From a virus, in the IMG/VR virus record IMGVR_UViG_3300045988_177154, positions 64,001-128,000 of that record: a stretch of DNA of 64,000 bases. One strand, 5' to 3'. The notes under the pieces were generated by a model. It ran no database searches, was not told the DNA's origin, and was given only the letters and a program-made list of their open reading frames with translations. Made by a program: the position numbers and the translations under genes. Positions 2,432 through 63,247 of the stretch are shown one piece after another (the stretch's first letter is position 1; every line of letters starts with the position of its first letter).

Positions 2432-3571
2432 ATGCCAAAATTTCATATTGGAAAAAGGGGTAACACGGCTGCTTGCCACGCTAAAGGAAAATGCCCTCTT
2501 GGTGGTGACGAATCTCATGGAAAAACAAGAGAAGAAGTTCAAACTATCATAGATAGCTACTACGAAACAGAAGCAGCACTTAGACGACATCAAGAATTAC
2601 CCGAATCAACAAACGCTTTTGAAACTGCTGGAAGATTAAAAGCATATAAAGAAAAACAAGAATATCTAGCTCAACTAATCAATGGTATTGAAGAACGAAA
2701 TAGAAGTATTTTCTATTCTTCTTATGGAACTGCTGAACAAATTGAAGCTGCTATTGCAAGCAATCATGAAAGAATCGCTAATGAAAAAGCTTATCTAGCT
2801 AATAGAGAGATGGTTTTAGCTGATAGAGATGCTTACAAAGAAAAAGCATTAGCAGAAATTCAACAAAACAATCCTTTTGGTGAAAGATTAACTATTTCTC
2901 CAGCAGGTAAGCTATTTGTTAAAGACATTCAAAAAGACGAATGGTCAGCTTATAATAAGATTAAAGACAAACTAAAAGAGATTAAAGAAGAAGAACAAAA
3001 ATATATTGACGCTAGTTATGCTTATGCTCCAAAAGACAGACCATTCACTGATAATGAAATCAAAGAAATGCAAGAAGATTTAGAGAAGCTTAAACAACAA
3101 CCAGAGCGTTTTGACACTACTAAAGATAGAGAAGAATATGAAAAAGTAAGTACTGAAATTAAAAAATACGAACAGCTTCATAAAGAGCAATTATTTGAAG
3201 AACGTACTGGTCATAAACTTTCAGAATTAAACGCCATTCCTCGTACTGAAACTTCTGATAAAGTTAGAATTGATGAAAAAGGACATTTTACTAATGTTTA
3301 TGCAAAATCTGATGGTGAAGTTTACAAAGTATTAAAAACTGGCCATGAAGAAGGTGCATATGGTGGAATTGGAAGAAGTTACTTGGAAGTAGAAACACTT
3401 AATGGGGATAAAAAAGAATTAAGTATGACTACTACATGGAATTGGCGTATGACAAGAACTCATGACGCTTACAATTCATTACCACACATTTATACTGTTG
3501 ATGATAATAAAGGAACATTAACAAATGAACCAGTTCATTTCAGTAAAATTATGATTGATAGCTCAGATTAA
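2432..3571 (+). CDS. hypothetical protein (N-terminal Cys/His-rich KGKCPLGG segment)
   Basis: 379-aa ORF, AAGGAG RBS. The antisense ORF 2384-2593 is rejected. Confidence 0.65.
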   Translation: MPKFHIGKRGNTAACHAKGKCPLGGDESHGKTREEVQTIIDSYYETEAALRRHQELPESTNAFETAGRLKAYKEKQEYLAQLINGIEERNRSIFYSSYGTAEQIEAAIASNHERIANEKAYLANREMVLADRDAYKEKALAEIQQNNPFGERLTISPAGKLFVKDIQKDEWSAYNKIKDKLKEIKEEEQKYIDASYAYAPKDRPFTDNEIKEMQEDLEKLKQQPERFDTTKDREEYEKVSTEIKKYEQLHKEQLFEERTGHKLSELNAIPRTETSDKVRIDEKGHFTNVYAKSDGEVYKVLKTGHEEGAYGGIGRSYLEVETLNGDKKELSMTTTWNWRMTRTHDAYNSLPHIYTVDDNKGTLTNEPVHFSKIMIDSSD

Positions 3572-4629: not shown

Positions 4630-5622
4630 GTGATTATTGAGGGGTATTTGTTTTCTGAAAAAGCAAGAATGATAAACAATATTTATTATGGTATTGTTGA
4701 ATATGATAACAGTAATTGCATTTATTACAATATTACTGATTATGATTTTGCTCTACTGAAATTAAACACTTTTGTGTATAAAGTAGAAGTTGATTCAAAT
4801 GATGTTTATTCTTTAACACCAAGCCATGTTTCGGCCATTAAATACCGAGTAAAAGAAGAAATAAATTTTAATGAATGGATTAAAGCTGCTCAATTTACTG
4901 AAGATGAATTTGGTCAAGATAAAATTGAATGGGATTCAATTATTGATGGTTCTATGGTAAGTGATGAAGTTTTAAGTATCTATAATAAAATTATGCGCTG
5001 TCAACCATGGTCGTTATCATTTGCTCAAATCATAAAACTTCATGCAATCTTAAATCAAAAGACATATGAGCTTCCAATCTTAAAACTACTAATGTGGAAT
5101 AAGGAATATGCTAGAGTTTATGAATTTTATCATAGAAAATATGAAATAGATTATAATGTGTATATTGTTGTAAGAGAGGAGTTTGTAGAACGTGAAGCTC
5201 TATATGGGTCAAAAATTTTTGAAAGTATAAACAGTAAAGATAATAGTATTCAATTTCCAAATATTTTTTACTTGATAGAAACAAGGAAATTTACTCAAAA
5301 TGAATTTGAAGTATGTTGGCTGAAAAATATCTGTCGCCTAAGTGATGAAAATAAAAGAACCTATATTAGAGCTGCTTTGATAGCAAATTACAACATAACA
5401 CCTTTACATAGAGATATATATCCAGTTGCTCTTATGCTTAAATATCCGGAATTAGCAACAAAATTAACTCGTAACAATATTGGTGACCCTAGTTGCATTT
5501 CAAGACTACTTATGCTTGGATATAAAATAAAAGGAAAAGATTATAAAGGAAAATATATTTCTATTTTAAATGCTAGAAAAATCATGAAAAATGATGAATA
5601 TAAATTTATAGAAATTGATTGA
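4630..5622 (+). CDS. paralog family A protein (A1)
   Basis: 330 aa, GTG start. Shares FVYKVEVDSNDVY, KLHAILNQKTYELP, YGSKIFE, RKFTQNEFEVC, GYKIKGKDY and YKFIE with the ORFs at 12789, 14748, 15760, 16758 and 17798. Confidence 0.7.
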   Translation: MIIEGYLFSEKARMINNIYYGIVEYDNSNCIYYNITDYDFALLKLNTFVYKVEVDSNDVYSLTPSHVSAIKYRVKEEINFNEWIKAAQFTEDEFGQDKIEWDSIIDGSMVSDEVLSIYNKIMRCQPWSLSFAQIIKLHAILNQKTYELPILKLLMWNKEYARVYEFYHRKYEIDYNVYIVVREEFVEREALYGSKIFESINSKDNSIQFPNIFYLIETRKFTQNEFEVCWLKNICRLSDENKRTYIRAALIANYNITPLHRDIYPVALMLKYPELATKLTRNNIGDPSCISRLLMLGYKIKGKDYKGKYISILNARKIMKNDEYKFIEID

Positions 5623-7165: not shown

Positions 7166-7308
7166 GTTGCTTACATCTGTAACTTATTGTAATAATGAAT
7201 AAGTGAGTTGTAAGGTAATACCTCATGTAGAGGACGAACTCCTAATTCAACTTGAACCGTTGAATCAAGTACATTCGTTAGAAATGACACAATTTGACCA
7301 TTTCCTTT
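7166..7308 (-). ncRNA. predicted omega-RNA (reRNA) scaffold of TnpB element 1
   Basis: Overlaps the last ~137 nt of tnpB plus 5 nt. This exact interval is the part conserved (~80% by eye) in the non-coding stand-alone copy at 20353-20488. Confidence 0.55.
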
Positions 7309-8667
7309 AAGCTTATTTACTTTTTCCTTAATTTCTTTTTTATTTGATTTTGGTTTAACTCTTTTAGTCTTTGCCTTTTTTGGTAAAGATTTTTTGAGCT
7401 TAATATTAGTAGAACGAATCGCAATATTGATAGCAGCTAATAAATCTCTATCAATTTTACCAGTCGTAAATTCAATAGTTCTATCATTAACTACTCCTAT
7501 TTCTTTCGTTATTGGGTGCTCCTTACTAGTATTAAATGCAGAAACCTTTTTTACCTCAATTCCATACATAGTGGCTTTCTCTATAATTTTAGAATGAATT
7601 TGAGAATGATTCCATTTACCACCTTGTGAATTTAACCAAGATAAATCTTCAATATGAATTGTTTTACACTTCTGCTCTAATGCTAAATTTACAATTTCGT
7701 TTGACAAAAGCTTTGCTTGATAATCTTTTGTGTTAATAATTTTATTAGAAATATTTGAATAAAGATTTTTCCAAATTTCATATTTAGATTGATTTGTTAA
7801 CCTTAAAGCTTCATAAGATTTAAGTTTATCATATAAGATTTGTTTATTTTCATAAAGTTTATTGATTTTATATTCTGTTTCTTGGCTTCGTTTTGTGTTG
7901 ACAAATTCATTACTGAAATTACCTTTTCTATCAACAACAACAGAACTAAATAATTTAATTTTACCTATATCCACACCTAAGATTTTATCTTCTAACACAT
8001 AATCCCCCACTTCATATTCATAAGAGCAAATACCTATATATTGATTATCTCTTTTACGTTTAATAAATCTAGGCTTCGCAATTCTGCCTGTAAATCTTTC
8101 ATCTATACTACTTGGAAAGATTATTTCATATTCAATCCAATCTTTTTTGCTCACTTTTATTTCACAAATATTACCTTGTTTCATTCTGAATATTTGCTTT
8201 TCTGAAATAGTATAATCAAGATTGAATACAGCGCTTCGTGCTAATTCGGGTATGGAATTATTACGTTTAATATTGGCAATTCTACTTCTTGTTGGGTAAA
8301 GTTTTAATTTGTGTAATGAATTAAATAAATCTTCATTTATGTTAAAATCATTTTTAACTAATTGATTCCAAATGATGATTGCTTCTTGTTTTGACTTTAT
8401 TTCTCGTCTGATGTTTTCAAACAAGATATACGAGTGCCAGGTTTTATTATGCAACGGCCAGTCTTTTATTCGGAATTTAAGACTATCCCTCATATCCCTC
8501 CAAACATCGCCTCTGAGTTTAGATAAATCAATTTTATCCAAGAGAGCTCTTGTTTCATCATTAGAGAGAATAAAATTTAACTCATTTTGTAAGAAATCAT
8601 AAATAGGTATAAGTTCTGATGGCATATTTATATTAAAACTTTTCCAATGAACTTTTTTCTTTTTCAT
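7171..8667 (-). CDS. tnpB: TnpB-like RNA-guided nuclease (IS200/IS605 OrfB family), 498 aa
   Basis: RuvC-like motifs ILGVDIGKIK (D), KTIHIEDLSW (E) and DRDLLAAINIA (D). No CxxC zinc-finger cysteines between motifs II and III. No tnpA nearby. Own promoter TTGAAA-17-TATAAT upstream on the minus strand (~8705-8735). Confidence 0.85.
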   Translation of the reverse strand: MKKKKVHWKSFNINMPSELIPIYDFLQNELNFILSNDETRALLDKIDLSKLRGDVWRDMRDSLKFRIKDWPLHNKTWHSYILFENIRREIKSKQEAIIIWNQLVKNDFNINEDLFNSLHKLKLYPTRSRIANIKRNNSIPELARSAVFNLDYTISEKQIFRMKQGNICEIKVSKKDWIEYEIIFPSSIDERFTGRIAKPRFIKRKRDNQYIGICSYEYEVGDYVLEDKILGVDIGKIKLFSSVVVDRKGNFSNEFVNTKRSQETEYKINKLYENKQILYDKLKSYEALRLTNQSKYEIWKNLYSNISNKIINTKDYQAKLLSNEIVNLALEQKCKTIHIEDLSWLNSQGGKWNHSQIHSKIIEKATMYGIEVKKVSAFNTSKEHPITKEIGVVNDRTIEFTTGKIDRDLLAAINIAIRSTNIKLKKSLPKKAKTKRVKPKSNKKEIKEKVNKLKGNGQIVSFLTNVLDSTVQVELGVRPLHEVLPYNSLIHYYNKLQM

Positions 8668-32690: not shown

Positions 32691-33590
32691 ATGAATAAAA
32701 TTAAATTATTAAGTGTTTTAACTTTATCTACCGTAGTTTTGGGTGCCTGTTCTTTGTTACCTAAATCAACAGAAAATAAAACTGAAACAACTGAACAAGT
32801 AACAACTACTAGTAAAGAAGATTCAGTTAAAGAGAAAGTCACAAAGGATGCTACAGTTCTTTTAGATTCTGTCTTAACTACAGATAATGCTAAATTTAAG
32901 AAAGTTTATGGGGAAACCTATGACAAATGGACTGATGCAATTATTGCCGTTCAAACTAGTGAAAAAATTAAGGAAGATGGTCTTACTCCAGCTTCTGAAT
33001 ATTCTGTACAATGGGTAAAAGATTTTCCAATTGAAACACCAGAAGAAACAATTTCTAACTTCCTTAAAGTAAGACGAAATCTCTTTCAGAAAATTGTAAA
33101 TTACAATATTAAAGATGTTGTAATTGATGATTCGGGAAATACTGCAACTGTTACATTTACATCTAAGAAGTTACATTCTCTTGGTTTAGCCTCATCAGTA
33201 AGAACAGTTCTAACTGAACTAATTGGGGGAATTGATAACCTCGGTAAATATAACCAAGCAGGTTCTTCTGAAACCGTTAAACGTTATCAAAACTTACTTT
33301 CTTATTGGATTTTCCGTCACTTATACAAACATGACTTTGCCATTTACTCTAATGTTGATGCTAACTTATCTCATGTTCCATTTACAAAAGGTGAATTTGA
33401 CACTGAGATTAAACTCACAAAGGATAAAGATGGCAATTGGGTGATTTCTCAAGATGATTATAAGACTTTGCTATCAGAATTGGTAGATAGAACTGAAGGC
33501 TATGATACAATAGACCGTTCAGGACTTCCTAATAAGAAAGCAACTGACTCATCTGAAACATCTACAGACAAAGATAAATCAAAAATTTAA
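32691..33590 (+). CDS. lipoprotein
   Basis: 299 aa. Signal peptide with lipobox LSTVVLGAC; Ser/Thr/Lys-rich linker; AGGAG RBS. Confidence 0.75.
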   Translation: MNKIKLLSVLTLSTVVLGACSLLPKSTENKTETTEQVTTTSKEDSVKEKVTKDATVLLDSVLTTDNAKFKKVYGETYDKWTDAIIAVQTSEKIKEDGLTPASEYSVQWVKDFPIETPEETISNFLKVRRNLFQKIVNYNIKDVVIDDSGNTATVTFTSKKLHSLGLASSVRTVLTELIGGIDNLGKYNQAGSSETVKRYQNLLSYWIFRHLYKHDFAIYSNVDANLSHVPFTKGEFDTEIKLTKDKDGNWVISQDDYKTLLSELVDRTEGYDTIDRSGLPNKKATDSSETSTDKDKSKI

Positions 33591-33641
33591 TTTAAAAATT
33601 ATAGAGAGTAGAACATCTTAAAAGATGTTTCCTCTCACTTT

Positions 33642-33730
33642 GGAGCGGTACCCAAGTGGCTAAAAGGGGGCGGTCTTGAAAACCGTTAGGTCGTTAATTC
33701 GGCGCGTGGGTTCGAATCCCACCCGCTCCG
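33642..33730 (+). tRNA. tRNA-Ser (UGA)
   Basis: Acceptor GGAGCGG/CCGCTCC, loop CTTGAAA, long variable arm, T-loop TTCGAAT. Confidence 0.85.
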
Positions 33731-34577
33731 TTATATAGGAAGCTTGTAGTTGTCTGTGACCATCAAGCACAAACCGGCGTTACTCAAAAGGGAACGTTTG
33801 TAGTAATGTGAAAAGCATTACGATAGGTTTGGTACTATAATTAAATATAAATCCAAAAGTGCATTTTTCCGTTGGTTTGATGCCTGGCGTTATACAGTTC
33901 GCTTGCAGGTGTAAGAATGAACGAATGATTCAGAAAATAACTTGTTATTGGACGGAATCATCACGTTGGGAATTGAAAACTTAGTCGTGATGCTATAGTA
34001 ATATAGCTATAAAACGGATATGAATGGCTGGTTCGCTAAAGACTAGAATAGGAAATCTAAACAGTCCTTACGGTTGTGTGGTAACAGTCCACACCAATTC
34101 ATAAAGGTTATTGTCGGCCAACAATAATCGAATTGTCGCATAATAAATCTTGACTATATTAAGTTGTAGGTGGTGTCCTACTTTATGGCGGAATAAGTTC
34201 ATCGGCTTAACGCATGATAGCATGACATTCAAAAGATGTTCTGAGAGGCGATTGCTTCAAAGTGTTATCAGTACTTATATAGGTAGAGATTAGTGCAAGT
34301 CTAGGATTCTAATACAGAGAACGAATTGCATATGAGTGTAATTCCAAGCTCAAGTGTTGAATGAGGTTGATGTCATGAAAGTGACTATAAGAATTTGCTA
34401 GACAAACGCTGTAAGAAATCCTCACGCAGTAAAAGATATGGTATCTTTGATGATAAAGATATTAAATTTACTGACCAAGATGTGGTGAACCTTTGGGGTA
34501 TCAATCCTCACTTCGTGACTGAATATGGACGTTTAATTGTAGTTGTCAGTAAAAACTAAATCTGGCCCTATATTTTA
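33731..34577 (+). ncRNA. candidate giant structured ncRNA (~847 nt; GOLLD/ROOL-class candidate)
   Basis: 847 nt flanked by tRNA-Ser and tRNA-Thr with no ORF of 60 aa or more on either strand. Markedly higher GC than coding DNA. Many short complementary segments. Confidence 0.45.
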
Positions 34578-34650
34578 GCTGGAGTAGCTCAATTGGTAGA
34601 GCACCCGCCTTGTAAGCGGAAGGTTGCAGGTTCGAAGCCTGTCTCCAGCA
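34578..34650 (+). tRNA. tRNA-Thr (UGU)
   Basis: Acceptor GCTGGAG/CTCCAGC, loop CTTGTAA, T-loop TTCGAAG. Confidence 0.85.
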
Positions 34651-35040
34651 TACTCTATAATAGATGTAATTATAAGAGTTCCTGAAAAATCAATGACTCA
34701 TGTAGGTTGTCATGAATTTACATGAATAGATTTCAATGTTGGTTTATCTGTAATCCGAAGCATGAATAAAACAGATTGTGGTCTTTGCTTTACCATATTA
34801 TTGTAAAGGTCAAAGCTTATCAGAAGTAATTCTGTAAAAAGTTGTTTCGATTGGAATTAGTGACTCCAATCTTTATCCATGAAATAACAAAAAATCATAA
34901 CTATTAAAGTTATGTGGCAGTTACGTTAGAGTATTGCTTGAAGTGTTGAAAATTAGAAGTTAGTGCCGAATTTCTAATCGTACTTCATTGATAGGGTTTT
35001 CGGTGGACACCGCGGGGCATAAGAAAACCGGCCAGTGAAA
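34651..35040 (+). ncRNA. ORF-free structured spacer sharing a motif block with 34255-34330
   Basis: GCTTGAAGTGTTG..ATTAGAAGTTAGTGCCGAATTTCTAATCGTAC (34935-34990) resembles GCTTCAAAGTGTT..AGATTAGTGCAAGTCTAGGATTCTAATAC (34255-34315). Confidence 0.35.
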
Positions 35041-35125
35041 TAAATGGTGTAATTAAAGAAATTCTAAGATATGGCTTATAATTTCAAAAATTACTTAAAT
35101 TTTTTAAAAAATTTTAATTTTGATA

Positions 35126-35153
35126 TTGACAATAACTCAAATTTTGATATAAT
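35126..35153 (+). promoter_or_regulatory. internal promoter of the RNA island
   Basis: TTGACA 35126-35131, 16 nt, TGATATAAT ending at 35153; long A/T UP-like tract upstream. Confidence 0.6.
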
Positions 35154-35171
35154 AGATACATAAAAACTTAT

Positions 35172-35243
35172 AGGTTCTTAGTTTACCGAGAAAAATAAGG
35201 GTCTCCAAAACCTTAGAAATCAGTGCAAGTCTGATAGAGCCTG
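35172..35243 (+). tRNA. tRNA-Trp (CCA), non-canonical D and T loops
   Basis: Acceptor AGGTTCT/AGAGCCT, D stem GTTT/AAAT, anticodon stem-loop AGGGT-CTCCAAA-ACCTT, T arm ATCAG-TGCAAGT-CTGAT (the T-loop lacks the TTC consensus). Confidence 0.55.
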
Positions 35244-35287
35244 TTACAAATAAAAATTATTAAAAGAAAAAAGGAAGGTACGTAATC

Positions 35288-35410
35288 ATGACAACATTTA
35301 CAGTCGCACAAGATATTCATATGATTATTGATATGCAGCCGGCAGCCGGTACTGTAGTGCTTCGTCAAGCAAAAAATACCTTACAATCTAATAGTAGGAT
35401 TATAAGTTAG
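35288..35410 (+). CDS. possible 39-aa leader-type ORF
   Basis: AAGGAAGG RBS 8 nt upstream of the ATG. MTTFTVAQDIHMIIDMQPAAGTVVLRQAKNTLQSNSRIIS. Its 3' end overlaps the first copy of an 11-nt repeat that takes part in alternative hairpins. Confidence 0.3.
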   Translation: MTTFTVAQDIHMIIDMQPAAGTVVLRQAKNTLQSNSRIIS

Positions 35411-35439
35411 CATTCAGCTCAGCTTAATAAATCAAACTA

Positions 35440-35469
35440 AGATTGTAAGAAATTCCTTACAATCTTTTT
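35440..35469 (+). terminator. terminator hairpin with a competing upstream partner (attenuator-like)
   Basis: AGATTGTAAG (35440-35449) pairs with CTTACAATCT (within 35455-35465) followed by TTTTC. An identical CCTTACAATCT at 35379-35389 could pair with the same segment instead. Confidence 0.45.
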
Positions 35470-35479
35470 CTAGCTATAT

Positions 35480-35550
35480 GGGGCATTAGTTTAATGGGAA
35501 AACACTACCCTTGCAAGGTAACGTTAGGAGTTCGATTCTCCTATGCTCCA
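35480..35550 (+). tRNA. tRNA-Ala (UGC)
   Basis: Acceptor GGGGCAT/ATGCTCC with G3-U70, loop CTTGCAA, T arm AGGAG-TTCGATT-CTCCT. Confidence 0.8.
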
Positions 35551-35575
35551 TTTCCATTAAGGAAATCATCATTAA

Positions 35576-35646
35576 GTGGACATAGTATAAGGGTAGTATG
35601 ACGGGCTTCCAACCCGTTGGTGCGAGTTCGAATCTCGTTGTCCATA
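35576..35646 (+). tRNA. tRNA-Gly (UCC)
   Basis: Acceptor GTGGACA/TGTCCAT, anticodon stem-loop ACGGG-CTTCCAA-CCCGT, T-loop TTCGAAT. Confidence 0.8.
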
Positions 35647-35649
35647 TAA

Positions 35650-35720
35650 GGCGAGGTAGTGAAAAGGTATAACGTTGGGCTCATAACCCAAAATTGTCGG
35701 TTCGAATCCGACCTTCGCAA
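35650..35720 (+). tRNA. tRNA-Met (CAU), initiator-like features
   Basis: Loop CTCATAA. Three G-C pairs closing the anticodon stem (TTGGG/CCCAA). Position 1-72 unpaired (G x A). Poorly formed D stem. Confidence 0.7.
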
Positions 35721-35730
35721 TTTTAAATTA

Positions 35731-35804
35731 CTAGGTGTAGCGCAGTTTGGTAGCGCACGTGCTTTGGGAGCACGGGGCCGCAGGTTCGAATCCTGTCACC
35801 TAGA
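35731..35804 (+). tRNA. tRNA-Pro (UGG)
   Basis: Acceptor CTAGGTG/CACCTAG, anticodon stem-loop CGTGC-TTTGGGA-GCACG. Confidence 0.85.
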
Positions 35805-35845
35805 TAAAGCAATGATGAATTGCTTAAAGGAAAGGTTTTTATATT

Positions 35846-36025
35846 ATGACTAATTTGAAAAAATATATCTTATCTTTGATTATAGCATTTGTAATTACCA
35901 TTCCTATTGCAAGTGTTATTCTTACAATTATTTATGATACAGTAATCTTCTTGATTATCTCAACAATTATTTATTTTATTGTAATGACTTTAGTTATTAA
36001 AGGATTTAATTATGATAAAGATTAG
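35846..36025 (+). CDS. small membrane protein (59 aa, two hydrophobic segments) embedded in the tRNA array
   Basis: AAAGGAAAGG RBS. MTNLKKYILSLIIAFVITIPIASVILTIIYDTVIFLIISTIIYFIVMTLVIKGFNYDKD. The stop abuts tRNA-Ile. Confidence 0.5.
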   Translation: MTNLKKYILSLIIAFVITIPIASVILTIIYDTVIFLIISTIIYFIVMTLVIKGFNYDKD

Positions 36026-36096
36026 TGTCCGATGGTGAAATGGTATCACAAGCTGCTGATAACGGCTAGTTACAAGTTCAATTCTTGTTCGGACAA
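36026..36096 (+). tRNA. tRNA-Ile (GAU)
   Basis: Acceptor TGTCCGA/TCGGACA, anticodon stem-loop AGCTG-CTGATAA-CGGCT, T arm ACAAG-TTCAATT-CTTGT. Confidence 0.8.
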
Positions 36097-36107
36097 TACA
36101 ATATAAA

Positions 36108-36179
36108 TGCTTCTTAGTTTAATGGATATGACGCCGGACTACGAATCCGGAGATAAAGGTTCAATTCCTTTAGGAGCAA
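36108..36179 (+). tRNA. tRNA-Arg (ACG)
   Basis: Acceptor TGCTTCT/AGGAGCA, anticodon stem-loop CCGGA-CTACGAA-TCCGG. Confidence 0.8.
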
Positions 36180-36184
36180 TATAT

Positions 36185-36258
36185 TGGAGTATAGACAAAT
36201 TGGTAAAGTCACTGGACTTTGAATCCAGGTTTTGCTGGTTCGAATCCAGCTACTCCAG
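36185..36258 (+). tRNA. tRNA-Gln (UUG)
   Basis: Acceptor TGGAGTA/TACTCCA, anticodon stem-loop CTGGA-CTTTGAA-TCCAG. Confidence 0.85.
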
Positions 36259-36270
36259 TTAATAAAATAT

Positions 36271-36343
36271 GGCTTCGTAGCAAAGTGGTTATTGCGCTGG
36301 CTTGTCACGCCAGAGGTCGGGGGTTCGATTCCCCTCGGGGCCG
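36271..36343 (+). tRNA. tRNA-Asp (GUC)
   Basis: Acceptor GGCTTCG/CGGGGCC, anticodon stem-loop CTGGC-TTGTCAC-GCCAG. Confidence 0.85.
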
Positions 36344-36755
36344 TAACCCTGCCTAGGGGTAATACATAGTAGTAATACTATGAAAGGAAGTTTGACAAAC
36401 TTTCGCCTGTCTTATGATGGGTTAACTAGGCAATACATTTTCAAGTTGCTCAAAAGGCACATTATATAAGCATAATCAGTGAGAAACCTTGAGATAGTTT
36501 CAGGCATGGAATTGCTAACTTCTTGTGCTAGCTAATGGAAGTTAGATGTGCGAAATATAAGGAGAATGTAAGGATTAACAGTTAGAGTCTTAGCGGATAA
36601 TAGCGTAATCCATAACAATATTCATATGGTTGGCAAATCATTGTAAGTATTGTTGAATTTCAAAATCTTAGCGGATAGAGAAGTAATAAATTGGCGAGGA
36701 GCATTCCTTAGAACAAAATTTTATGGAACTCCGAGGCATAGCTCGTCAATGTCAA
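36344..36755 (+). ncRNA. ORF-free structured spacer (5' part of a possible ~836-nt RNA with a nested tRNA-like element)
   Basis: 412 nt with no ORF. Internal repeat ATCTTAGCGGATA at ~36585 and ~36665. Hairpins such as CTAACTTC...GAAGTTAG. Confidence 0.35.
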
Positions 36756-36829
36756 AGGTGATTAGCTCATTTGGTAGAGCATATATTTTGAGGAATATAG
36801 GGTAATGGGTTCGATTCCCATATTACTAA
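36756..36829 (+). tRNA. tRNA-like element with an 8-nt anticodon loop (identity undetermined)
   Basis: Canonical D arm GCTCATTTGGTAGAGC and T arm ATGGG-TTCGATT-CCCAT. Anticodon stem TATAT/ATATA encloses TTTGAGGA (8 nt). Acceptor AGGTGAT/ATTACTA is weak (1-72 mismatch, two G-U pairs). Confidence 0.5.
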
Positions 36830-37179
36830 CGAAGCGAAAGTCTATGTCAGACTTAGAAAAAAAGAGCATTAACTCCATACAGATTTATTCTGAATATGGA
36901 AACAATAGAAGCTCGCAAGCAACTATTGTTTTAATCCAATGATTTCCGCAAACTTGAGCCGTACAACTTAGGTCTAACGAAATCGGGTTGAGTATCGCTA
37001 AGTCTTAATGGTAAAAGTATCGCCAGCAGGTTTGTAACTGCGAAAGATGAATGCTTAAGAGATACGATTAGGAATAATCGTGGATAAACAACTAAACAAT
37101 AAGGTTGTTAAAGACTCTTATTTAACGCTATAATCTCAGGCCGTTAACTTCTTATAGGGGAAGAGAAATCCTATTTTAT
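36830..37179 (+). ncRNA. ORF-free structured spacer (3' part of the possible ~836-nt RNA)
   Basis: 350 nt with no ORF. GNRA-type hairpins (GCGAAAG, CTGCGAAAGATG) and several 6-9 bp complementary pairs. Confidence 0.35.
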
Positions 37180-37251
37180 GCTCTGTTAGCTCAGGGGGAG
37201 AGCACTAGTCTTACAAACTAGATGTCATTGGTTCAAATCCAATACAGAGCA
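37180..37251 (+). tRNA. tRNA-Val (UAC)
   Basis: Acceptor GCTCTGT/ACAGAGC, anticodon stem-loop CTAGT-CTTACAA-ACTAG. Confidence 0.85.
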
Positions 37252-37306
37252 TTTCCTACATAAAACGCAAAATCGTTTATTGTAGTGCTTACGATGTAAG
37301 CATCTA

Positions 37307-37389
37307 GCGCCCGTGGTGGAATGGCAGACACGCTAGGCTTAGACCCTAGTGTCCGAAAGGACGTGAGAGTTCGAGTCTCTCCGAGTGCA
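37307..37389 (+). tRNA. tRNA-Leu (UAG)
   Basis: Acceptor GCGCCCG/CGAGTGC (one C x A mismatch), anticodon stem-loop CTAGG-CTTAGAC-CCTAG, long variable arm. Confidence 0.75.
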
Positions 37390-37390
37390 T

Positions 37391-37464
37391 CTTGTCTTAG
37401 TGTTAATAGGTTAGCATATCTCACTGTGACTGAGAAGGTACGGGTTCGAGTCCCGTAGGCATGA
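37391..37464 (+). tRNA. tRNA-His (GUG)
   Basis: Acceptor CTTGTCT/AGGCATG (one U x U mismatch), anticodon stem-loop TCTCA-CTGTGAC-TGAGA, T arm ACGGG-TTCGAGT-CCCGT. No encoded G-1. Confidence 0.65.
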
Positions 37465-37515
37465 TTAGGAAAGGGAACAATAATTGTTCTCTTTATTTAT
37501 TTTTAGAGGTGTTTA

Positions 37516-53172: not shown

Positions 53173-54351
53173 ATGAAAACTATGAACTTATTAGAACAAT
53201 ACAAACAGTTACAGAAAACAAACTTATCAAAAGATGGCGATATGCAGCTAGGTATCGCTTACAAAAAAGAAAATGGATTGACTACAGTAAAATACCTTCA
53301 TGGTGGAGTAGATTTTAATAATCCTTTATATAGACAAGCTCGTGGATTAACACTAGACTTGAATGGAAAAGTAATTTTACGAGGATTTGAAAAATTCTTT
53401 AACTGGAAACAATTAACAGAATATGAAAATTATTCAAAGGAATTTAAAAAAGTATACTCAGAAGTAGAATATATCCCTAATCATAAATATAATTTCTATG
53501 AAAAGTTGGATGGTTCACTAATTCTCTTAGCAGAGTATAAGAATCGTTTTGTAGCTGCAACTACTTCATCATCTTATAATCCATATACTCAAACTGCTCT
53601 TAAATGGTTCCACCAAAAAGAAAACCATAGAGAATTGCTTAACTATCTAAGAGCTAAAAATATTACATTAGCATTTGAATACATTTCAATCAAAAACCCA
53701 ATCGTAATTCATTATACTCATACTGATTACGTTTTAATTGGAGCTCATGAAAACAAAACAGGTAAACGCTACTCACAAGAACAATTAAACAAAATTGCTA
53801 AACGTTTTGGATTTAACCAACCTAAAGTTTTCCAATATACTTTTGAAGAAATTCAAGAAGTTATGAGCAATGCTAAAGATATTGAAGGCTTCGTGCTAGA
53901 AAATACTTATGGAAAACTTATTAAATTTAAAACTGACGAATGGTTCCGCTTGAAAGATTACTACGGTATCTTCTTCGGACCACTAACAAATTCAAAAATT
54001 TCTACAATTATTGAAAGCTATCTTGCTGATGAAATTGATGACCTAATCGCTGTTGAACAACAACACGAACATTACAAACATTTAGGATTGCTTGACACTA
54101 CTCTAACTCATGCTAAATATTTTGAAGATGAAGTTCTAAAAGCTTATAAAGTTACAAAACATTTATCAGACAAAGAACTTGGCTTGAATTGGAAAGATTA
54201 TATGGAATCATATGCTTTGCCATGTGTATTTAATATAAGAAAAGGTGTTGATTGGAGAATACAAAGAAAAGGTGAAGGCCCAGTTACATTAGCATTATTA
54301 GTTCAAACAAAAGTAAAACAAGAAAGAGAGGAAGAATTATTAAATGGATAA
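53173..54351 (+). CDS. T4 RnlA-like RNA ligase 1
   Basis: 392 aa. ARGLTLDLNGKVILRGFEKFFNW parallels T4 Rnl1 CRGIMFEMDG...RPMEKFFNL. Motif I YEKLDGSL (KxDG). Confidence 0.75.
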   Translation: MKTMNLLEQYKQLQKTNLSKDGDMQLGIAYKKENGLTTVKYLHGGVDFNNPLYRQARGLTLDLNGKVILRGFEKFFNWKQLTEYENYSKEFKKVYSEVEYIPNHKYNFYEKLDGSLILLAEYKNRFVAATTSSSYNPYTQTALKWFHQKENHRELLNYLRAKNITLAFEYISIKNPIVIHYTHTDYVLIGAHENKTGKRYSQEQLNKIAKRFGFNQPKVFQYTFEEIQEVMSNAKDIEGFVLENTYGKLIKFKTDEWFRLKDYYGIFFGPLTNSKISTIIESYLADEIDDLIAVEQQHEHYKHLGLLDTTLTHAKYFEDEVLKAYKVTKHLSDKELGLNWKDYMESYALPCVFNIRKGVDWRIQRKGEGPVTLALLVQTKVKQEREEELLNG

Positions 54352-54841
54352 GATTATTAACAATATGAGATACACTGACACTCATGTTTATTTCTTTACG
54401 GACCAAGCTCCGTTTTCAAACTTTTATAAAACAAGATTTTATTATAAGGGATATAACTTGCAATTTTCTGAGCAAGGATTTATGATTGAGAAAGCATTGT
54501 TATTTGATAATAGCAAAGCGAGTTTAATCGCTTATGAAAAACACCCTTATCAAGTTAAAATGCTTGGCCGTAAAGTGAGAAATTACAATGAAGCAAAATG
54601 GAATGAAGTACGTTATGATAAAATGGTAGAAGTGCTTCGTGCTAAATTTTCTCAAAATGAAGATTTGAAACAAATCTTACTTGAAACAGGTGACCGTATT
54701 CTAGTCGAAGGCTCTCCTTATGATAAGATTTGGGGCGTAAAAATCGACTGGAAAGATGATAAAATTCTTGACGAAAAGAATTATAAAGGAATGAACTTGT
54801 TAGGTAAGGCACTTATGCAAGTCAGAAGCGAGCTTAAATAG
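54344..54841 (+). CDS. NADAR (YbiA/DUF1768) domain protein
   Basis: 165 aa. FSNFY, FSEQGFMIEKALLF, MLGRKVRNYNEAKWNEVRYDKMVEVLRAKFSQNEDLKQILLETGDRILVEGSPYDKIWG matches the YbiA/NADAR pattern closely. Confidence 0.8.
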   Translation: MDKIINNMRYTDTHVYFFTDQAPFSNFYKTRFYYKGYNLQFSEQGFMIEKALLFDNSKASLIAYEKHPYQVKMLGRKVRNYNEAKWNEVRYDKMVEVLRAKFSQNEDLKQILLETGDRILVEGSPYDKIWGVKIDWKDDKILDEKNYKGMNLLGKALMQVRSELK

Positions 54842-55048: not shown

Positions 55049-56263
55049 ATGAAAGATAATAAAACTGAAATTGAACAACTATCTCGGAGAGAAGTTTTTA
55101 AAATGACTCAAGAAACAAAACGAAAAAAACGTAGTAAAAGAACAAGACTTCTAATTACACTTATTACTGTTGGAATTATTGGTGGAATTGCTATTGAGGG
55201 TGTAAATCTTTTATCAATCTATAATAGTAGTAAGGCTTGGCAAAAACAATCTAAAACGCCTATTGCTTCATTAGAACCTTATATGCTCTATCTAAGCCAA
55301 GAGGATATGGATAATCTTTCAGAATATACTTCAAGATTAAGTGTTATCTATGATAGTAATAAAGGTGTATTTGCTGAGGGAGTTACTCAAAAGGATTTAG
55401 ATGAGTTACAAAAAGAATTTGAAAAATTAGCGCCCTCACTCAAAGAAAAAGAAGAAGCTAAATATAAATTAGTAAGTAATATGTGGAGTATGAAATCTGA
55501 CTATGATGCAATGTGGAATAAAGAACATACTGCATTATTAGACTCTACTACACCTAAAACAGTAAGTGATTATGTGGATAAACACTGGAAAATCATGGAT
55601 TCATATTTAGAAGATGATTCTATTCAAAAAGAATGGCTGATTAACACTTATAATGAATTAAATAAATTAAAAGATGATACTGCTACAATCTCTGCTTTGT
55701 TCAATATGTTTAATTCAACTTTTGATGTATCTGACAAAAAGATTATTGTTAAGAAAGATGTAAGTTCATCATCTATTGCAGAATGGAGTAAAGTTAAAGC
55801 AAATCTTAACTTCAGTTGGCCTATCGTTTCTAATTACATGACTGAAATTATTAACAACTCAACTAAGATTTTAGAAAAACATGATAAAGCTATCAATCTT
55901 TATACAGAATATAGTGGAGCTGCAGAAAGTAAAAATGCTTTTGACACTTGGAGTAAAACATATTCACAATATAATAACAGTATGATTAACTTGCCGAACT
56001 TTGTTGGAAAAGACATTGAAACTGTAAAATCTTGGGCTAAAGAAAATGGAATTACACTCATTATCAATAAAGTAGAAGATTCTGCTAAGAAAGATACAGT
56101 AATTTCACAAAATCCAACTAATTCTGATTATGCTAAAATTCTAAAAGGTAGTGCATTTACTGTTAATATTGCTAAAGAAAAAACAACTACTACTGAAACA
56201 AAAGATAAAGACAAAGAAAATAAAAAAGAAACAACAGAAGCAACAACTAAGGAGAATAACTAA
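55049..56263 (+). CDS. membrane-anchored protein with C-terminal PASTA domain
   Basis: 404 aa. Basic stretch plus TM LLITLITVGIIGGIAI. C-terminal NFVGKDIETVKSWAKENGITLIINKVEDSAKKDTVISQNP...FTVNIAK looks like a PASTA repeat. Confidence 0.6.
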   Translation: MKDNKTEIEQLSRREVFKMTQETKRKKRSKRTRLLITLITVGIIGGIAIEGVNLLSIYNSSKAWQKQSKTPIASLEPYMLYLSQEDMDNLSEYTSRLSVIYDSNKGVFAEGVTQKDLDELQKEFEKLAPSLKEKEEAKYKLVSNMWSMKSDYDAMWNKEHTALLDSTTPKTVSDYVDKHWKIMDSYLEDDSIQKEWLINTYNELNKLKDDTATISALFNMFNSTFDVSDKKIIVKKDVSSSSIAEWSKVKANLNFSWPIVSNYMTEIINNSTKILEKHDKAINLYTEYSGAAESKNAFDTWSKTYSQYNNSMINLPNFVGKDIETVKSWAKENGITLIINKVEDSAKKDTVISQNPTNSDYAKILKGSAFTVNIAKEKTTTTETKDKDKENKKETTEATTKENN

Positions 56264-58497
56264 TGAAGATTTTAAAAAAGATTATGAAATTTATTTTAAA
56301 GCTCTTTAAATGGAGTTTAATATTAGGATTTATCCTTGCTCTTGTTGGTTTCTTAGCTGGAACAATTTATAGTGCAGGTGTAATCAAACAAACTCCTAAA
56401 ATTACTGAAGAAATGATTACAAAAGCAACAGGTGGAACTACAAATATGTACGATTCAACTGGCCAAGTAATCTATTCTGATACTGAGCATAGACGAGATT
56501 ATATTCGTTATGATGAAATTCCAAATAAATATATTGAGCTATTACTTGCAACTGAAAATAAGAATTATTGGAATGAAAAAGGTTGGTCATTTGAAGCTAT
56601 CCTAGCTGCAATTAAAAGCAAAGGTGCTCGTGGTGGTTCTACTATTGAACAACAACTTATTAAAAATCTTGTTTTCTCAAGTGACATTAAAGACAGAACG
56701 ATTGACCGTAAGATTAAAGAAATCTGGCTCGCTTCACAAATGGATTTAAACTTTGACAAGAAACAAATCTTGGAATGGTATATTAACTTAATCAATATGG
56801 GTGAGGGCTCTTATGGAGCAAATACTATTGCTATTACTTATTACGGTCAAAGTTTGAAAGATTTAACTGGTGATGATGCAGTAACATTATCTAAATTAGC
56901 TACAATCGCTGGATTAGGACAAGCTCCATCAGCTTACAATCTATATGATAACCCCGAATTAGTAGAAGAACGAAGAAATATTGTTTTACTAAGTGCTCTT
57001 AATAATAATAAGATTACTGAAGAACAATATGAAGAAGCTAAAAAAGTTCCAATTCAAGAGGGCTTGAAAGAGCGTTATTGGAGAAATGGAACAGTGTTAG
57101 CACAAACAAAAGAACATAATGCTTATGTAACTTCTGCTCTTAAACAAGTTCAAGAATTGGGCTATGATTTAGAAAAAACACCAATGCAAATCTATACTGC
57201 TTTAGACCCAAATGTTAACTCACAAGTAAAATCTACCTTTGATAATTTTTCTGGTTATAAAGATGATGAAGAACAAATGGCAGCTACTGTTATTGACCCT
57301 AATACAGGTTATGTATTAGCACAATATGGGGGAAGAAATACAGAAGCATTTGGTTTGAATAGAGCAACACAACAAACACGTAGTTCAGGTTCGTCTATTA
57401 AACCATTTGAAGATTATGGTCCCGCTATTGAATATAATGGACTAGGAACAAATTATATTTTAGATTCAAGTAATTATCTTTACCCAGGTACAAATGTAGT
57501 AGCACATAACTTTGGTGGCGCAACTTATGGAAATGTAACTATGGCATTCGCTCTTAAAATGTCATTAAACACTCCAGCTATTCGTATCTTGAATAATGTT
57601 GTTGGTTCAAACAATGCTAAGAAATTCCTAGCTGGAATGAACTTAGATACAGAAGAAACCTATGGAGATTCAACAGCTTTAGGATTGAATGTTTCAACTG
57701 AACAAATGGCAGCTGCTTCTGCTACTCTTGCTAATAAAGGAATGTATAAGAAACCACAATATATTACTAAATTGGTATTTAATGATGGTTCAGAAAAAGA
57801 AATTAAATTTAATCCAACAAGAGCTATGAAAGAAAGTACTGCATATATCTTATTGAAGATGATGGCAGAAGTCCCTAAACCTACTGGTACAGCTACTGAT
57901 GCTATTATCAATCACTATAAGAGTTATTCTGTTAAAACAGGTACTGTAGGATACGGTCCCGAAGTTGGTTGGGCAACAAGTAATGATGCTTCTGATACTT
58001 GGGTAGTTGGAACAACTAAGAATGTTTCTATTGCTATTTGGAATGGCTATGATTCCCCTAATGAATACGGACATAGTGTTGATGTTTATGCTCACTCACA
58101 ACAACGAGTATTTAAACAATTGATGTTAGCAATGAATGAAGGCAAAGATGTTAGCGATTGGGAAAAACCAGATACTGTAACAAGTTCTGACCCTAACAAC
58201 ATGAAACCAACTGATGTTGATGTTAACTCATCTTATATTGATAAATTCCCAGAGCCATATTTCACATTATCAGACACTAGTGTTAATAATAGTATCAATG
58301 CTTATTACAAAAAAGATAAATTATTAAAAGTGGAAGATGCTGGAGTAGAAAAATACAAAGTTCCAAGTGATTATAAAGAAGTTATTGATTGGCAATCAAA
58401 AGCAAATGCAGATATGCTAAGATTATTCAATGCTTATCCAAACAATCCTTTATACCCAGCACTTATCAACAATAATGCTTATTATCAAGAACCATAA
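56263..58497 (+). CDS. class A penicillin-binding protein (glycosyltransferase GT51 + transpeptidase)
   Basis: 744 aa. GT51 motifs ATENKNYWNEKG, GGSTIEQQLIKN, RKIKEIWLA. Transpeptidase motifs SSIKP (SxxK), SLN (SxN), KTGT. Confidence 0.85.
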   Translation: MKILKKIMKFILKLFKWSLILGFILALVGFLAGTIYSAGVIKQTPKITEEMITKATGGTTNMYDSTGQVIYSDTEHRRDYIRYDEIPNKYIELLLATENKNYWNEKGWSFEAILAAIKSKGARGGSTIEQQLIKNLVFSSDIKDRTIDRKIKEIWLASQMDLNFDKKQILEWYINLINMGEGSYGANTIAITYYGQSLKDLTGDDAVTLSKLATIAGLGQAPSAYNLYDNPELVEERRNIVLLSALNNNKITEEQYEEAKKVPIQEGLKERYWRNGTVLAQTKEHNAYVTSALKQVQELGYDLEKTPMQIYTALDPNVNSQVKSTFDNFSGYKDDEEQMAATVIDPNTGYVLAQYGGRNTEAFGLNRATQQTRSSGSSIKPFEDYGPAIEYNGLGTNYILDSSNYLYPGTNVVAHNFGGATYGNVTMAFALKMSLNTPAIRILNNVVGSNNAKKFLAGMNLDTEETYGDSTALGLNVSTEQMAAASATLANKGMYKKPQYITKLVFNDGSEKEIKFNPTRAMKESTAYILLKMMAEVPKPTGTATDAIINHYKSYSVKTGTVGYGPEVGWATSNDASDTWVVGTTKNVSIAIWNGYDSPNEYGHSVDVYAHSQQRVFKQLMLAMNEGKDVSDWEKPDTVTSSDPNNMKPTDVDVNSSYIDKFPEPYFTLSDTSVNNSINAYYKKDKLLKVEDAGVEKYKVPSDYKEVIDWQSKANADMLRLFNAYPNNPLYPALINNNAYYQEP

Positions 58498-59563: not shown

Positions 59564-60949
59564 ATAATGTGTGATAACTGTAACAAAAAATCATAAAATC
59601 CAATAAAAAAGGAGGTGAAATTATGTACTTAACTGAAAAAGAGATTATCTATTCAACTGATGAAAGATTTAACTTGATTAAAGATTTGTGCCATTTAAGC
59701 AAAAATCTTTATAATGCAAGTCTTTATGATGTTAGACAATATTACTTTGAAACTAAATCATACAGAACTTGGCAATCACAAGTGCCAATTTTTACTAAAA
59801 CTAAAAATACTGATTATTATGCACTTCAATCTCATGTTGCTAGTGAAGTGATAAAGCAAGTTGGTAGACAATTTATTAGTTTTTTCAATAATAAATCTAA
59901 CAAAAAGAAACGAATCCCTAAATACAAAGATAAAAATGGTTATAACGTTGTTACTTTCAATAATCGTGCAATTTCTAGGAAGATTGAGTTTGATGAGGAT
60001 AAACAACTTTATACTCATACTCTATGTAAGAAAAGTTATAATCTTAAAATTCAATCAACTAAATCAAATATTAAAATGGTAAAATTTGTTTATGATGAAG
60101 TTAATGACTTAATCAAGTGTTACAAGATTTATGAAGTTGAACAACCTAAGTTGAAAAATGATAATTCACGGTATTTCTCAATTGACCCAGGGTTAAATAA
60201 TATTGTTGCTATTTACAATAACATTGGAATCAGACCGTTATTATACAATGGCAGACCAATCAAAAGTATTAACCAATATTACAATAAAACAACTGCTAAA
60301 TTGAGGTCAGAATTGCCCACTAATATTAAATCATCTAAAAGATTAAAACAACTATCTTTAAAGAGAAATAACAAAATTGATTATGAGATGCACAAAATTT
60401 CAACTCATATTATCAATGAAGCCGTAAAAAACAACATTTCAAAAATCTTTATTGGCAATAACATTGGTTGGAAAAATGAAATTAACATTGGCAGAAGAAA
60501 TAACCAAAATTTTGTTAATATTCCTCATACAAAACTATTCAATCAATTGCTATATAAAGGGTCATTAAATGACATTGAAGTTATCTTTACAGAAGAGAGT
60601 TACACTTCAAGAGCAAGTTTCTTTGATAAAGATGAATTACCTATTTATGATGAAACTAGCAAGTATAAATTCTCTGGTAGAAGAATAAAACGTGGCTTAT
60701 ATAAAGATAGTAAAGGCAATATATGGAATGCTGATTTAAATGGAGCAGCCAATATTATGAGAAAATGTTCAGACAAAGCCTATAAAGGTATAAGAAAAAC
60801 CAAAGAAATGATGCGACAGCCAATTCTTATAACATTATAAGTAGCACTCAATTTAATATAATGAGAGTGTAGAGGCATTTGTAGGTATGCCATTATGAGA
60901 AGTTAAATCTTAATTTAACGAGTCTATAAAAATCAAATCATATTTGATT
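59564..60949 (+). mobile_element. TnpB-only IS1341-type element 2 (tentative ends)
   Basis: TTGAT at 59559-59563 precedes a 59-nt leader to tnpB. Downstream similarity to the solo remnant at 32616-32652 ends at TTTGATT (60943-60949). No tnpA. Confidence 0.4.
59623..60840 (+). CDS. tnpB: TnpB (IS200/IS605 OrfB, IS1341 group), 405 aa
   Basis: FSIDPGLNNIVAI (RuvC I), IFIGNNIGWKNEINIGRRNNQNFVNIPH, EESYTSRASF (RuvC II region), NADLNGAANIMRK (RuvC III). AAGGAGG RBS. Confidence 0.85.
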   Translation: MYLTEKEIIYSTDERFNLIKDLCHLSKNLYNASLYDVRQYYFETKSYRTWQSQVPIFTKTKNTDYYALQSHVASEVIKQVGRQFISFFNNKSNKKKRIPKYKDKNGYNVVTFNNRAISRKIEFDEDKQLYTHTLCKKSYNLKIQSTKSNIKMVKFVYDEVNDLIKCYKIYEVEQPKLKNDNSRYFSIDPGLNNIVAIYNNIGIRPLLYNGRPIKSINQYYNKTTAKLRSELPTNIKSSKRLKQLSLKRNNKIDYEMHKISTHIINEAVKNNISKIFIGNNIGWKNEINIGRRNNQNFVNIPHTKLFNQLLYKGSLNDIEVIFTEESYTSRASFFDKDELPIYDETSKYKFSGRRIKRGLYKDSKGNIWNADLNGAANIMRKCSDKAYKGIRKTKEMMRQPILITL

Positions 60950-63142: not shown

Positions 63143-63144
63143 AA

Positions 63145-63218
63145 GGCCCCATAGCCAAGTTGGTTTAAGGCATTGGACTGCAAATCCAAGAACGTGGGTT
63201 CGAATCCCATTGGGGTCT
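63145..63218 (+). tRNA. tRNA-Cys (GCA)
   Basis: Acceptor GGCCCCA/TGGGGTC, anticodon stem-loop TTGGA-CTGCAAA-TCCAA, T arm GTGGG-TTCGAAT-CCCAT. Confidence 0.8.
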
Positions 63219-63247
63219 TTTTATTTAAAAAAGAAAGTTGGTTAATT

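Follow-up and report, generated by a model that had tools for sequence, protein, structure and literature searches.

GOLLD is an RNA of more than 800 nt found in phages and prophages, often near tRNA islands, in which the 3' region is conserved and the 5' region varies (Kretsch et al. 2025, PMC12286853). The env-38 GOLLD forms a 14-mer nanocage as determined by cryo-electron microscopy, and its variable linker (nt 497–538) faces the lumen (PMC12286853). tRNAs in the J13/15 linker have already been reported for GOLLD (PMC12286853, PMC12990946, PMC6582537). According to a 2026 review, a Mycolicibacterium GOLLD carries tRNA-Phe in J13/15, and 'inhibited storage' was proposed for it (PMC12990946, citing Morgado 2020). 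The GOLLD of M. aubagnense contains a 'pseudo tRNA', for which a northern blot detected no released species (Behra et al. 2019, PMC6582537). Here we describe a locus of this kind in a 64,000-nt stretch of the viral record IMGVR_UViG_3300045988_177154. We refer to this whole stretch as the window, give coordinates as positions within it unless another locus is named, and denote related loci by L and a number. The window contains a GOLLD RNA between tRNA-Asp and tRNA-Val, with a tRNA-like module in its linker whose 8-nt anticodon loop is replaced in close relatives. Because linker tRNAs have been reported before and the linker faces the lumen, the element as such is ordinary for a phage. A first-pass annotation of this DNA had called it unusual for a phage, which is wrong for GOLLD, as tRNA arrays of phages and prophages are its typical home.

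The 3' end of tRNA-Asp(GTC) (36270–36344, + strand; ARAGORN, Rfam tRNA score 67.5 bits) lies at 36344 and tRNA-Val(TAC) (37179–37252, + strand; 72.2 bits) starts at 37179/37180, leaving 834 nt between them (36345–37178). The longest mechanical open reading frame (ORF) in this block is at most 51 amino acids long and none is credible, in agreement with the ORF-free block of the first-pass annotation. A search with large non-coding RNA models matched Rfam RF02032 (GOLLD) to 36689–37142 (+ strand) over the entire model (1–416 of 416) with a score of 156.3 bits (gathering score 150, E = 7e-42). All helices are paired in the cmscan alignment, with few non-canonical pairs, and helices of this conserved 3' domain carry compensatory changes between the window locus and L065. 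L337 (166.6 bits) and L343 (164.6 bits) are likewise above the RF02032 gathering score. The model spans only the conserved 3' half of GOLLD, the 5' half being variable. The 5' domain of the window locus (36345–36688, + strand, 344 nt) was found by nhmmer in L065, L211, L337 and L343 with E-values from 1e-92 to 8e-23, and its RNAalifold consensus (five relatives) contains 115 predicted pairs, 25 of them with compensatory changes. Its length is close to the ~350–420 nt expected of a GOLLD 5' domain, for an RNA of ~800 nt in all. The 834-nt RNA as a whole folds with z = −3.8 relative to shuffled sequences, and the flanks of the cloverleaf are thus structured, as had been surmised. Blastn of the block against GenBank phages returned a single 60-nt match, in Streptococcus phage Javan565, and no close cultured relative in that collection. 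From these data we conclude that 36345–37178 is one GOLLD RNA of ~834 nt, a giant non-coding RNA of a phage tRNA array. A GOLLD-like giant RNA with a nested tRNA was one of the two readings offered by the first-pass annotation, and the full-length match with the cloverleaf in the model's unpaired linker bears it out.

The cloverleaf (36756–36829, + strand; ARAGORN, Rfam) occupies the variable unpaired linker between the first hairpin of the 3' domain (36689–36751, + strand, model positions 1–63 by cmscan; P14 by position, which is our own assignment) and the junction AAGCGAAAGUCU (36832–36843), with spacers of 4 nt on its 5' side and 2 nt on its 3' side. The conserved J13/15 motif AAGCGAAAGTCT lies directly 3' of the module (36832–36843, + strand, cmscan) and served as the anchor of the census described below. 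The block extends for 411 nt to the 5' side of the cloverleaf and 349 nt to the 3' side. ARAGORN called 36756–36830 as tRNA-??? with a four-base anticodon (tgag), corresponding to an 8-nt loop, and the Rfam tRNA model scored the cloverleaf at 46.1 bits (gathering score 29), the lowest of the 23 tRNAs in the window and nearly tied with tRNA-Trp at 46.4 bits. The D arm (GCTC-ATTTGGTA-GAGC) and the T arm (ATGGG-TTCGATT-CCCAT) are canonical. The acceptor AGGTGAT/ATTACTA is not a fully paired 7-bp stem; it contains an A1·A72 mismatch, two G·U pairs and four Watson–Crick pairs. The first-pass description of good D and T arms on a weak acceptor was accurate in these respects.

The 5-bp anticodon stem TATAT/ATATA (36782–36786 and 36795–36799) encloses the loop TTTGAGGA (36787–36794, + strand), and reading of the sequence gave no register with a 7-nt loop closed by at least two pairs. 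RNAfold kept the cloverleaf and closed the anticodon arm into a 7-bp stem capped by a UGAG tetraloop, again giving no 7-nt loop, so the 8-nt loop noticed at first is genuine. Judged as a canonical elongator, the module matches the cloverleaf model and lacks a 7-nt loop with U33 and a purine at position 37. No parent for the module was found among the tRNAs of the array, the best match being 50/75, and gene conversion from the phage's own tRNAs was ruled out on the same identity.

A scan of viral contigs anchored on the flanks of the window lineage returned only L065 and L211, which are 96–97% identical to the window locus. The comparison of homologous loci upheld the 8-nt module in part: it is identical in L065 and L211, loop included, and is replaced by versions with 7-nt loops in L337 and L343. 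L337 is 95% identical to the window locus and has the same order, Ile-Arg-Gln-Asp-GOLLD-Val, with a replaced anticodon arm. L343 is more distant, and its anticodon arm has been replaced by GTTGA/TCGAT around the loop CAGTAAA. Between the window and L337 the module differs at 18 of 74 nt, in the acceptor end, the variable loop and the entire anticodon arm. The stem TATAT/ATATA of the window corresponds to TTTGT/ACAAA in L337, with two pairs changed on both sides, and the loop TTTGAGGA corresponds to ATGTTGA. Beside the module, these two loci show no differences over ~100 nt of upstream and 225 nt of downstream GOLLD sequence. The anticodon thus reads TGAG in the window, GTT in L337 and GTA in L343, unlike that of a conserved elongator. 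For comparison, the window and L337 share 16 orthologous free tRNAs, in which only 1 of 112 loop positions differs and no anticodon has changed. As the arms of the module are maintained and its loop is replaced while the free tRNAs are static, we conclude that the module is under a regime other than that of decoding tRNAs.

Loop replacement on a constant body was also observed in other sets of sister loci. L125, L143 and L258 contain the loops CTCTTAA, ATTGAAG and TCTGAAT, which differ at 3–6 of 7 positions depending on the alignment, and their tRNA bodies show 0/65 differences (0–1/67 in pairwise alignment); the flanking background of L125 and L143 differs at 6/624 and 11/258 positions. Similarly, the loops of L249 and L353 (CTTCTAA and TTTAGGC) differ at 5/7 positions, with 0/67 differences in the body and 3/621 in the upstream background. 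The free tRNAs of both sets keep their anticodons. By eye, the loop changes are not adenine-specific. Mutagenesis of the type carried out by diversity-generating retroelements is weakly excluded, as neither the module nor GOLLD occurs a second time, or as a template repeat, in the window; reverse transcriptase was not searched for. No report of loop turnover in GOLLD-embedded tRNAs was found in the searchable literature, which does not include key primary papers, and its novelty is accordingly uncertain.

Pairing partners of the loop within GOLLD were also considered. The loop of the window has a complement, CTCAAA, in a 5'-domain hairpin, the L343 loop is complementary to 7 nt at +52, the L249 loop is complementary to 6 nt of the last stem, and a UUGAG core is able to pair with an invariant UCUCAG. 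No co-varying partner was found between sisters, and we therefore take these complements to be due to chance. Self-complementary (kissing) loops showed no general pattern by eye.

A scan of IMG/VR with the 3' core motifs yielded at least 120 loci, 96 of which had enough upstream sequence. In this sample, which was not selected for tRNAs, ARAGORN found a linker tRNA in 1 of the 96 loci listed (L065). Embedded tRNAs were therefore sought with scans for a T arm plus junction motif in viral, metagenome and genome collections, filtered by our own nhmmer profile. The resulting census is a sample of at least 35 unique embedded tRNAs among the matches listed, from confirmed or closely allied GOLLD clades, and 92 unique free tRNAs of the same loci served as the comparison set. 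In an Rfam spot check of 20 census loci, GOLLD was above the gathering score in 16, and two of the other four were incomplete loci. Clade D (L381, L433, L314, L476 and L418) was left out of the statistics; these GOLLD-like loci of Saprospiraceae-type contigs contain embedded 'SeC(tca)' modules with UCA loops of the opal-suppressor type or a 6-nt CTTTAA loop, and the two of them compared with Rfam, L381 and L418, fall below the GOLLD threshold.

All 35 embedded tRNAs are located in J13/15, a short distance to the 5' side of the junction motif, with the ARAGORN call ending no more than 6 nt from the motif in 27 and 14–23 nt upstream of it in the other 8. They differ from the free tRNAs in several ways. 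Loops of a length other than 7 nt occur in 5/35 embedded versus 1/92 free tRNAs (p = 0.006), and U33 is missing from 5/30 versus 3/91 when only 7-nt loops are counted (p = 0.02). Acceptor mismatches are present in 23/35 versus 19/92 (p = 4e-6), and a Ser, Leu or Tyr anticodon on a body with a short variable arm was found in 9/35 versus 0/92 (p = 4e-6). In clade E a single acceptor, GATTTTT/AAAAATC, is combined with the anticodons GGT, TTT, GAA, TCT, GTG and CTC as well as with the 8-nt loop ATTGAGAA, a variety that does not fit normal synthetase identity rules. A UUGAG core recurs on four different stems, in the loops of the window (TTTGAGGA), L280 (ATTGAGAA), L309 and L264 (both CTTGAGA), and the loop of the window therefore resembles a UUGAG-type loop expanded by one base. 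In L264 the D, anticodon and T arms are retained alongside no more than three acceptor pairs (by eye), and ARAGORN made no call there.

Clade E modules (L215, L293, L244, L250, L308, L221, L253 and L280) are followed by an encoded NCCA, and the free tRNAs of these loci have no CCA; the reverse holds for the L125 and L249 loci. By our own inference, a CCA at this internal position should prevent cleavage by RNase Z and thereby leave the module attached. At L010, a short locus, a tRNA-Met 105–176 nt upstream of the 3' core motif lies apparently inside the 3' domain and outside J13/15. Two loci with an unverified mycobacterial-type label have a tmRNA gene beside GOLLD (L196, 6386–6734; L161, 2657–3013).

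We read the module as a tethered tRNA mimic and not as a conventional decoder, and the likely explanation of the locus as a whole is a GOLLD in a tRNA array whose linker module is such a mimic with a changeable loop. Selection would keep the elements of the L shape, namely the D arm, the T arm and a paired anticodon stem, with an imperfect acceptor end, and the anticodon loop would be free, or under pressure, to differ between close relatives. The 8-nt loop probably represents one state of a fast-changing loop, a 1-nt expansion of the UUGAG type, rather than a conserved quadruplet-decoding device. More speculatively, the module may serve as a handle or bait that is bound by a factor recognising both the tRNA shape and the anticodon loop. 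We also put forward, tentatively and with some doubt, that GOLLD-embedded tRNAs could form a distinct class of tethered mimics, in which the hypervariable loop would be a specificity element displayed many times in an RNA cage.

Several observations weigh against this interpretation. The module with the 8-nt loop is 100% identical in the window, L065 and L211, which elsewhere differ by 2–4%, a pattern compatible with purifying selection. An 8-nt loop built on the same UGAG core is likewise present in the unrelated GOLLD of L280, so that a quadruplet function is possible. Canonical-looking embedded tRNAs, such as those of L309 (68.6 bits) and L215 (69.7 bits) and the clade E modules with encoded NCCA, might be released and used. 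The census was ascertained through the T arm, the junction pattern and ARAGORN, and well-folded modules are over-represented in it. The GOLLD score of the window exceeds the gathering score by only 6 bits, and the cage and the lumen orientation are extrapolated from env-38, whose linker has no tRNA. Finally, the check for frameshift sites described below covered the 64-kb window of a ~260–280-kb genome.

A sub-hypothesis of the tethered mimic, which we consider possible but rather unlikely, is that the module lures a host factor which senses the anticodon loops of tRNAs, for instance an anticodon nuclease or modifying toxin. Many copies of this decoy or bait would be displayed per cage, and its loop would be under diversifying selection in an arms race. 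It would account for a hypervariable loop on a conserved body, and phage tRNAs are known to counter tRNA-targeting defences by anticodon-loop changes (PMC10264068, PMC11464382, PMC11555353). The window also encodes two RNA ligases (one T4 Rnl1-like), a NADAR protein and a PARG/macro protein. This sub-hypothesis is hard to reconcile with loops of 8 or 6 nt, which mimic no host tRNA, and with the failure to find a co-varying partner sequence within GOLLD.

The published storage hypothesis (PMC12990946) holds that the module is an ordinary tRNA precursor protected by the cage against RNase P and RNase Z, and that opening of the cage frees a usable tRNA. Several embedded tRNAs elsewhere combine perfect acceptors with canonical loops and high tRNA scores, and the NCCA encoded by clade E modules and not by the free tRNAs of the same loci is also in its favour. 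The window locus itself has a non-canonical loop and a mismatched acceptor end, and the clade E anticodons shift without a change of acceptor or discriminator, against synthetase identity rules. The Ser, Leu or Tyr anticodons on short-arm bodies in 9/35 modules and the three acceptor pairs of L264 (by eye) likewise speak against storage, which we judge improbable as an explanation of the module.

To much the same degree we doubt that the module is a decaying pseudo-tRNA, a functionless relic of the residence of GOLLD in tRNA arrays with an 8-nt loop that arose as an indel en route to loss. Its tRNA score, the lowest in the window, and its mismatched acceptor are what makes decay worth considering. 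The linker tRNA in ~1/96 of the GOLLDs listed in the unselected sample indicates in addition that such a module is dispensable for the family, and one such element has been called a pseudo tRNA (PMC6582537). Decay does not explain why the anticodon stem is maintained by double compensatory changes across the window, L337 and L343, nor why the D and T arms are invariant during loop turnover. Loops change at 5/7 positions alongside identical 67-nt bodies and hundreds of identical flanking bases, which is far above the local neutral rate. The insertion point is also shared by distant clades, always in J13/15 and mostly within 6 nt of the J motif.

The remaining alternative is the second reading of the first-pass annotation, in which a stand-alone tRNA decodes a quadruplet and thus acts as a +1 frameshift suppressor. 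In nine overlapping same-strand ORF pairs of the window, the downstream ORF lies in the +1 frame; CTCA, TCAA and CCTC are absent from the zero frame of all these overlaps, and each downstream ORF has its own start. The 8-nt loop without a 7-nt alternative, its identity in L065 and L211, the second 8-nt loop with a UGAG core in L280 and the canonical D and T arms are in favour of a suppressor, and RNase P tolerates mismatches between positions 1 and 72. The nearest loop relatives, however, are the CTTGAGA loops of other GOLLD-embedded modules (L309 and L264), and neither an origin from a normal isoacceptor by loop insertion nor a parent-like tRNA (best match 50/75) was found in the array. The UGA and GAG anticodons belong to Ser and Leu tRNAs with long variable arms, the variable arm of the module is short, and the loop is able to zip to a UGAG tetraloop. 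As the loop is not conserved in the next relatives L337 and L343, which have other anticodons, and there is neither a matching +1 site in the window nor a parent isoacceptor, and as the module is embedded in GOLLD and its release would split that RNA in two, we consider a released quadruplet-decoding tRNA very improbable.

ARAGORN found 22 of the 23 tRNAs of the window in one + strand array at 30478–37465. The 22 free tRNAs (30478–37465 and 63144–63219) cover all 20 amino acids, and none encodes CCA as judged from their 3' ends by eye. The closest relatives are IMG/VR contigs of 262 and 281 kb (the L065 contig is 261,670 bp), PHROG matches are present in the window, and the genome is jumbo-phage-like; it is that of a large phage of roughly 260–280 kb. 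A consensus scan found no promoter-like site directly 5' of GOLLD, and the sole terminator-like hairpin of the array (37470–37494, + strand) lies 3' of tRNA-His. Because no promoter-like site was found directly upstream and the terminator-like hairpin, the likely end of the array transcript, lies only past tRNA-His, GOLLD is probably part of that transcript.

L065 contains a 141-nt insert, absent from the window, between tRNA-Asp and an unaltered GOLLD start, TAACCCTGCC, which fixes the 5' boundary of the RNA at 36345. The insert (~3364–3505 of L065) has a T-arm-like GAGGGTTCAACTCCCTC, a palindromic TAATATTA at each end and a weak tRNA match (19 bits, E = 0.19). As the 3' end of tRNA-Asp abuts the 5' end of GOLLD, 3' processing of tRNA-Asp would set the GOLLD 5' end, and RNase P cleavage at the 5' end of tRNA-Val would set its 3' end. 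Judging from published work on the family, trimming of the flanking tRNA-Asp and tRNA-Val by RNase Z and RNase P may release GOLLD, and the released RNA may assemble into a homo-oligomeric nanocage. By analogy with the same work, the linker, and hence the tRNA-like module, would point into the cage lumen.

The conserved 3' core motifs GTGGATAA ... AAAG ... TAATCTCAG lie at 37080–37139 (+ strand, cmscan) and are the pattern that matched at least 120 viral loci. A 3' tail (37143–37178, + strand) connects the end of the Rfam model to tRNA-Val. TTAACG (37123–37128) and CGTTAA (37142–37147) lengthen the last helix, as paired by eye, and in the alignment this pairing survives the differences between the window and L065 via G·U pairs.

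Other parts of the array may also hold non-coding RNAs. Just 5' of tRNA-Phe, 31540–31654 (+ strand) gave a sub-threshold full-length match to Rfam YrlA (42.1 bits, gathering score 69, E = 7.5e-7), and a 20-nt D-arm stretch of its tRNA-like part (31611–31630) is 95% identical to the embedded module. Two further stretches, 33732–34577 (846 nt) and 34651–35170 (520 nt), contain no ORF longer than 54 amino acids and no Rfam match at E-values up to 0.1, and might hold other non-coding RNAs.

Genes for RNA repair and for the removal of ADP-ribose lie on either side of the array. Among the protein-coding genes of the window, an RNA ligase with a PHA02142 OB domain is encoded at 262–1278, a PARG/macro protein at 29298–30083, just upstream of the tRNA array, and a T4 Rnl1-like RNA ligase at 53173–54351, overlapped by a NADAR gene at 54344–54841. 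Two TnpB/IS605 OrfB-like proteins with a Cas12f1-like TNB domain are encoded at 7171–8667 (− strand) and 59623–60840 (+ strand). A PASTA-domain protein followed by a class A penicillin-binding protein (transglycosylase and transpeptidase) occupies 55049–58497. The best tblastn matches (<36% identity) are on contigs labelled Listeria, Enterococcus or Staphylococcus phage, which hints at a Bacillota host.

A GOLLD with a linker tRNA in the tRNA array of a jumbo phage combines two features that have both been described, and in itself changes little. What the comparison adds is that embedded modules evolve unlike free tRNAs, with a conserved body and a rewritten anticodon loop. Should this pattern result from diversifying selection, for instance against host factors that sense the anticodon loop, it would offer the first functional handle on GOLLD, and the 8-nt loop of the window would be one allele. 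A tRNA-shaped hypervariable element that faces into a cage is directly testable. There is also a consequence for annotation, as odd 'tRNA-???' or rare-isoacceptor calls in tRNA arrays can stem from GOLLD linker modules instead of novel decoders. Embedded calls in the census include 'His(ATG)' and 'Ser(ACT)', both of which have been listed as rare mycobacterial isoacceptors (PMC9569102).

Like the RF02032 GOLLDs from a Lactobacillus brevis prophage and env-38 (PMC12286853), the window locus has a full-length 3'-domain match, a length of ~0.8 kb and a variable 5' domain, and it resembles them in its position in a phage tRNA array and in having a variable linker at the same place. Unlike the 42-nt disordered linker of env-38, its linker is filled by a cloverleaf. 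The mycobacterial GOLLDs with tRNA-Phe or a 'pseudo tRNA' are similar in having a defective-looking tRNA-like element in J13/15, and they are found in a horizontally acquired tRNA cluster, as the window locus is found inside a tRNA array. The window locus differs from them in clade, in its tRNA body and in its 8-nt loop; mycobacterial-type census loci (label unverified) have the loops ATTGGA (6 nt) and ATATGGA.

The suf-class +1 suppressors of Salmonella and E. coli are free, chargeable isoacceptors with single-base insertions that were selected against a specific frameshift mutation. The module shares with them an 8-membered anticodon loop on a 5-bp stem; unlike them, it lies inside another RNA, has no parent isoacceptor and a mismatched acceptor, and its loop is not conserved in orthologues. 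To our knowledge, an embedded cloverleaf has not been reported for ROOL (RF03087), which likewise is a cage-forming RNA of phage tRNA arrays, unrelated to GOLLD in sequence and fold; the L244 array holds both ROOL (4780–5450, 218 bits) and GOLLD (3126–3564). Y RNA-like YrlA (RF02553) also carries a tRNA mimic, and it too is unrelated to GOLLD in sequence and fold. With the defence-evading tRNAs of T5 and related phages (PMC10264068, PMC11464382), the module has in common that the anticodon loop is the evolving part. The T5-type tRNAs keep their anticodon and decode, whereas the embedded modules are tethered and change both anticodon and loop length.

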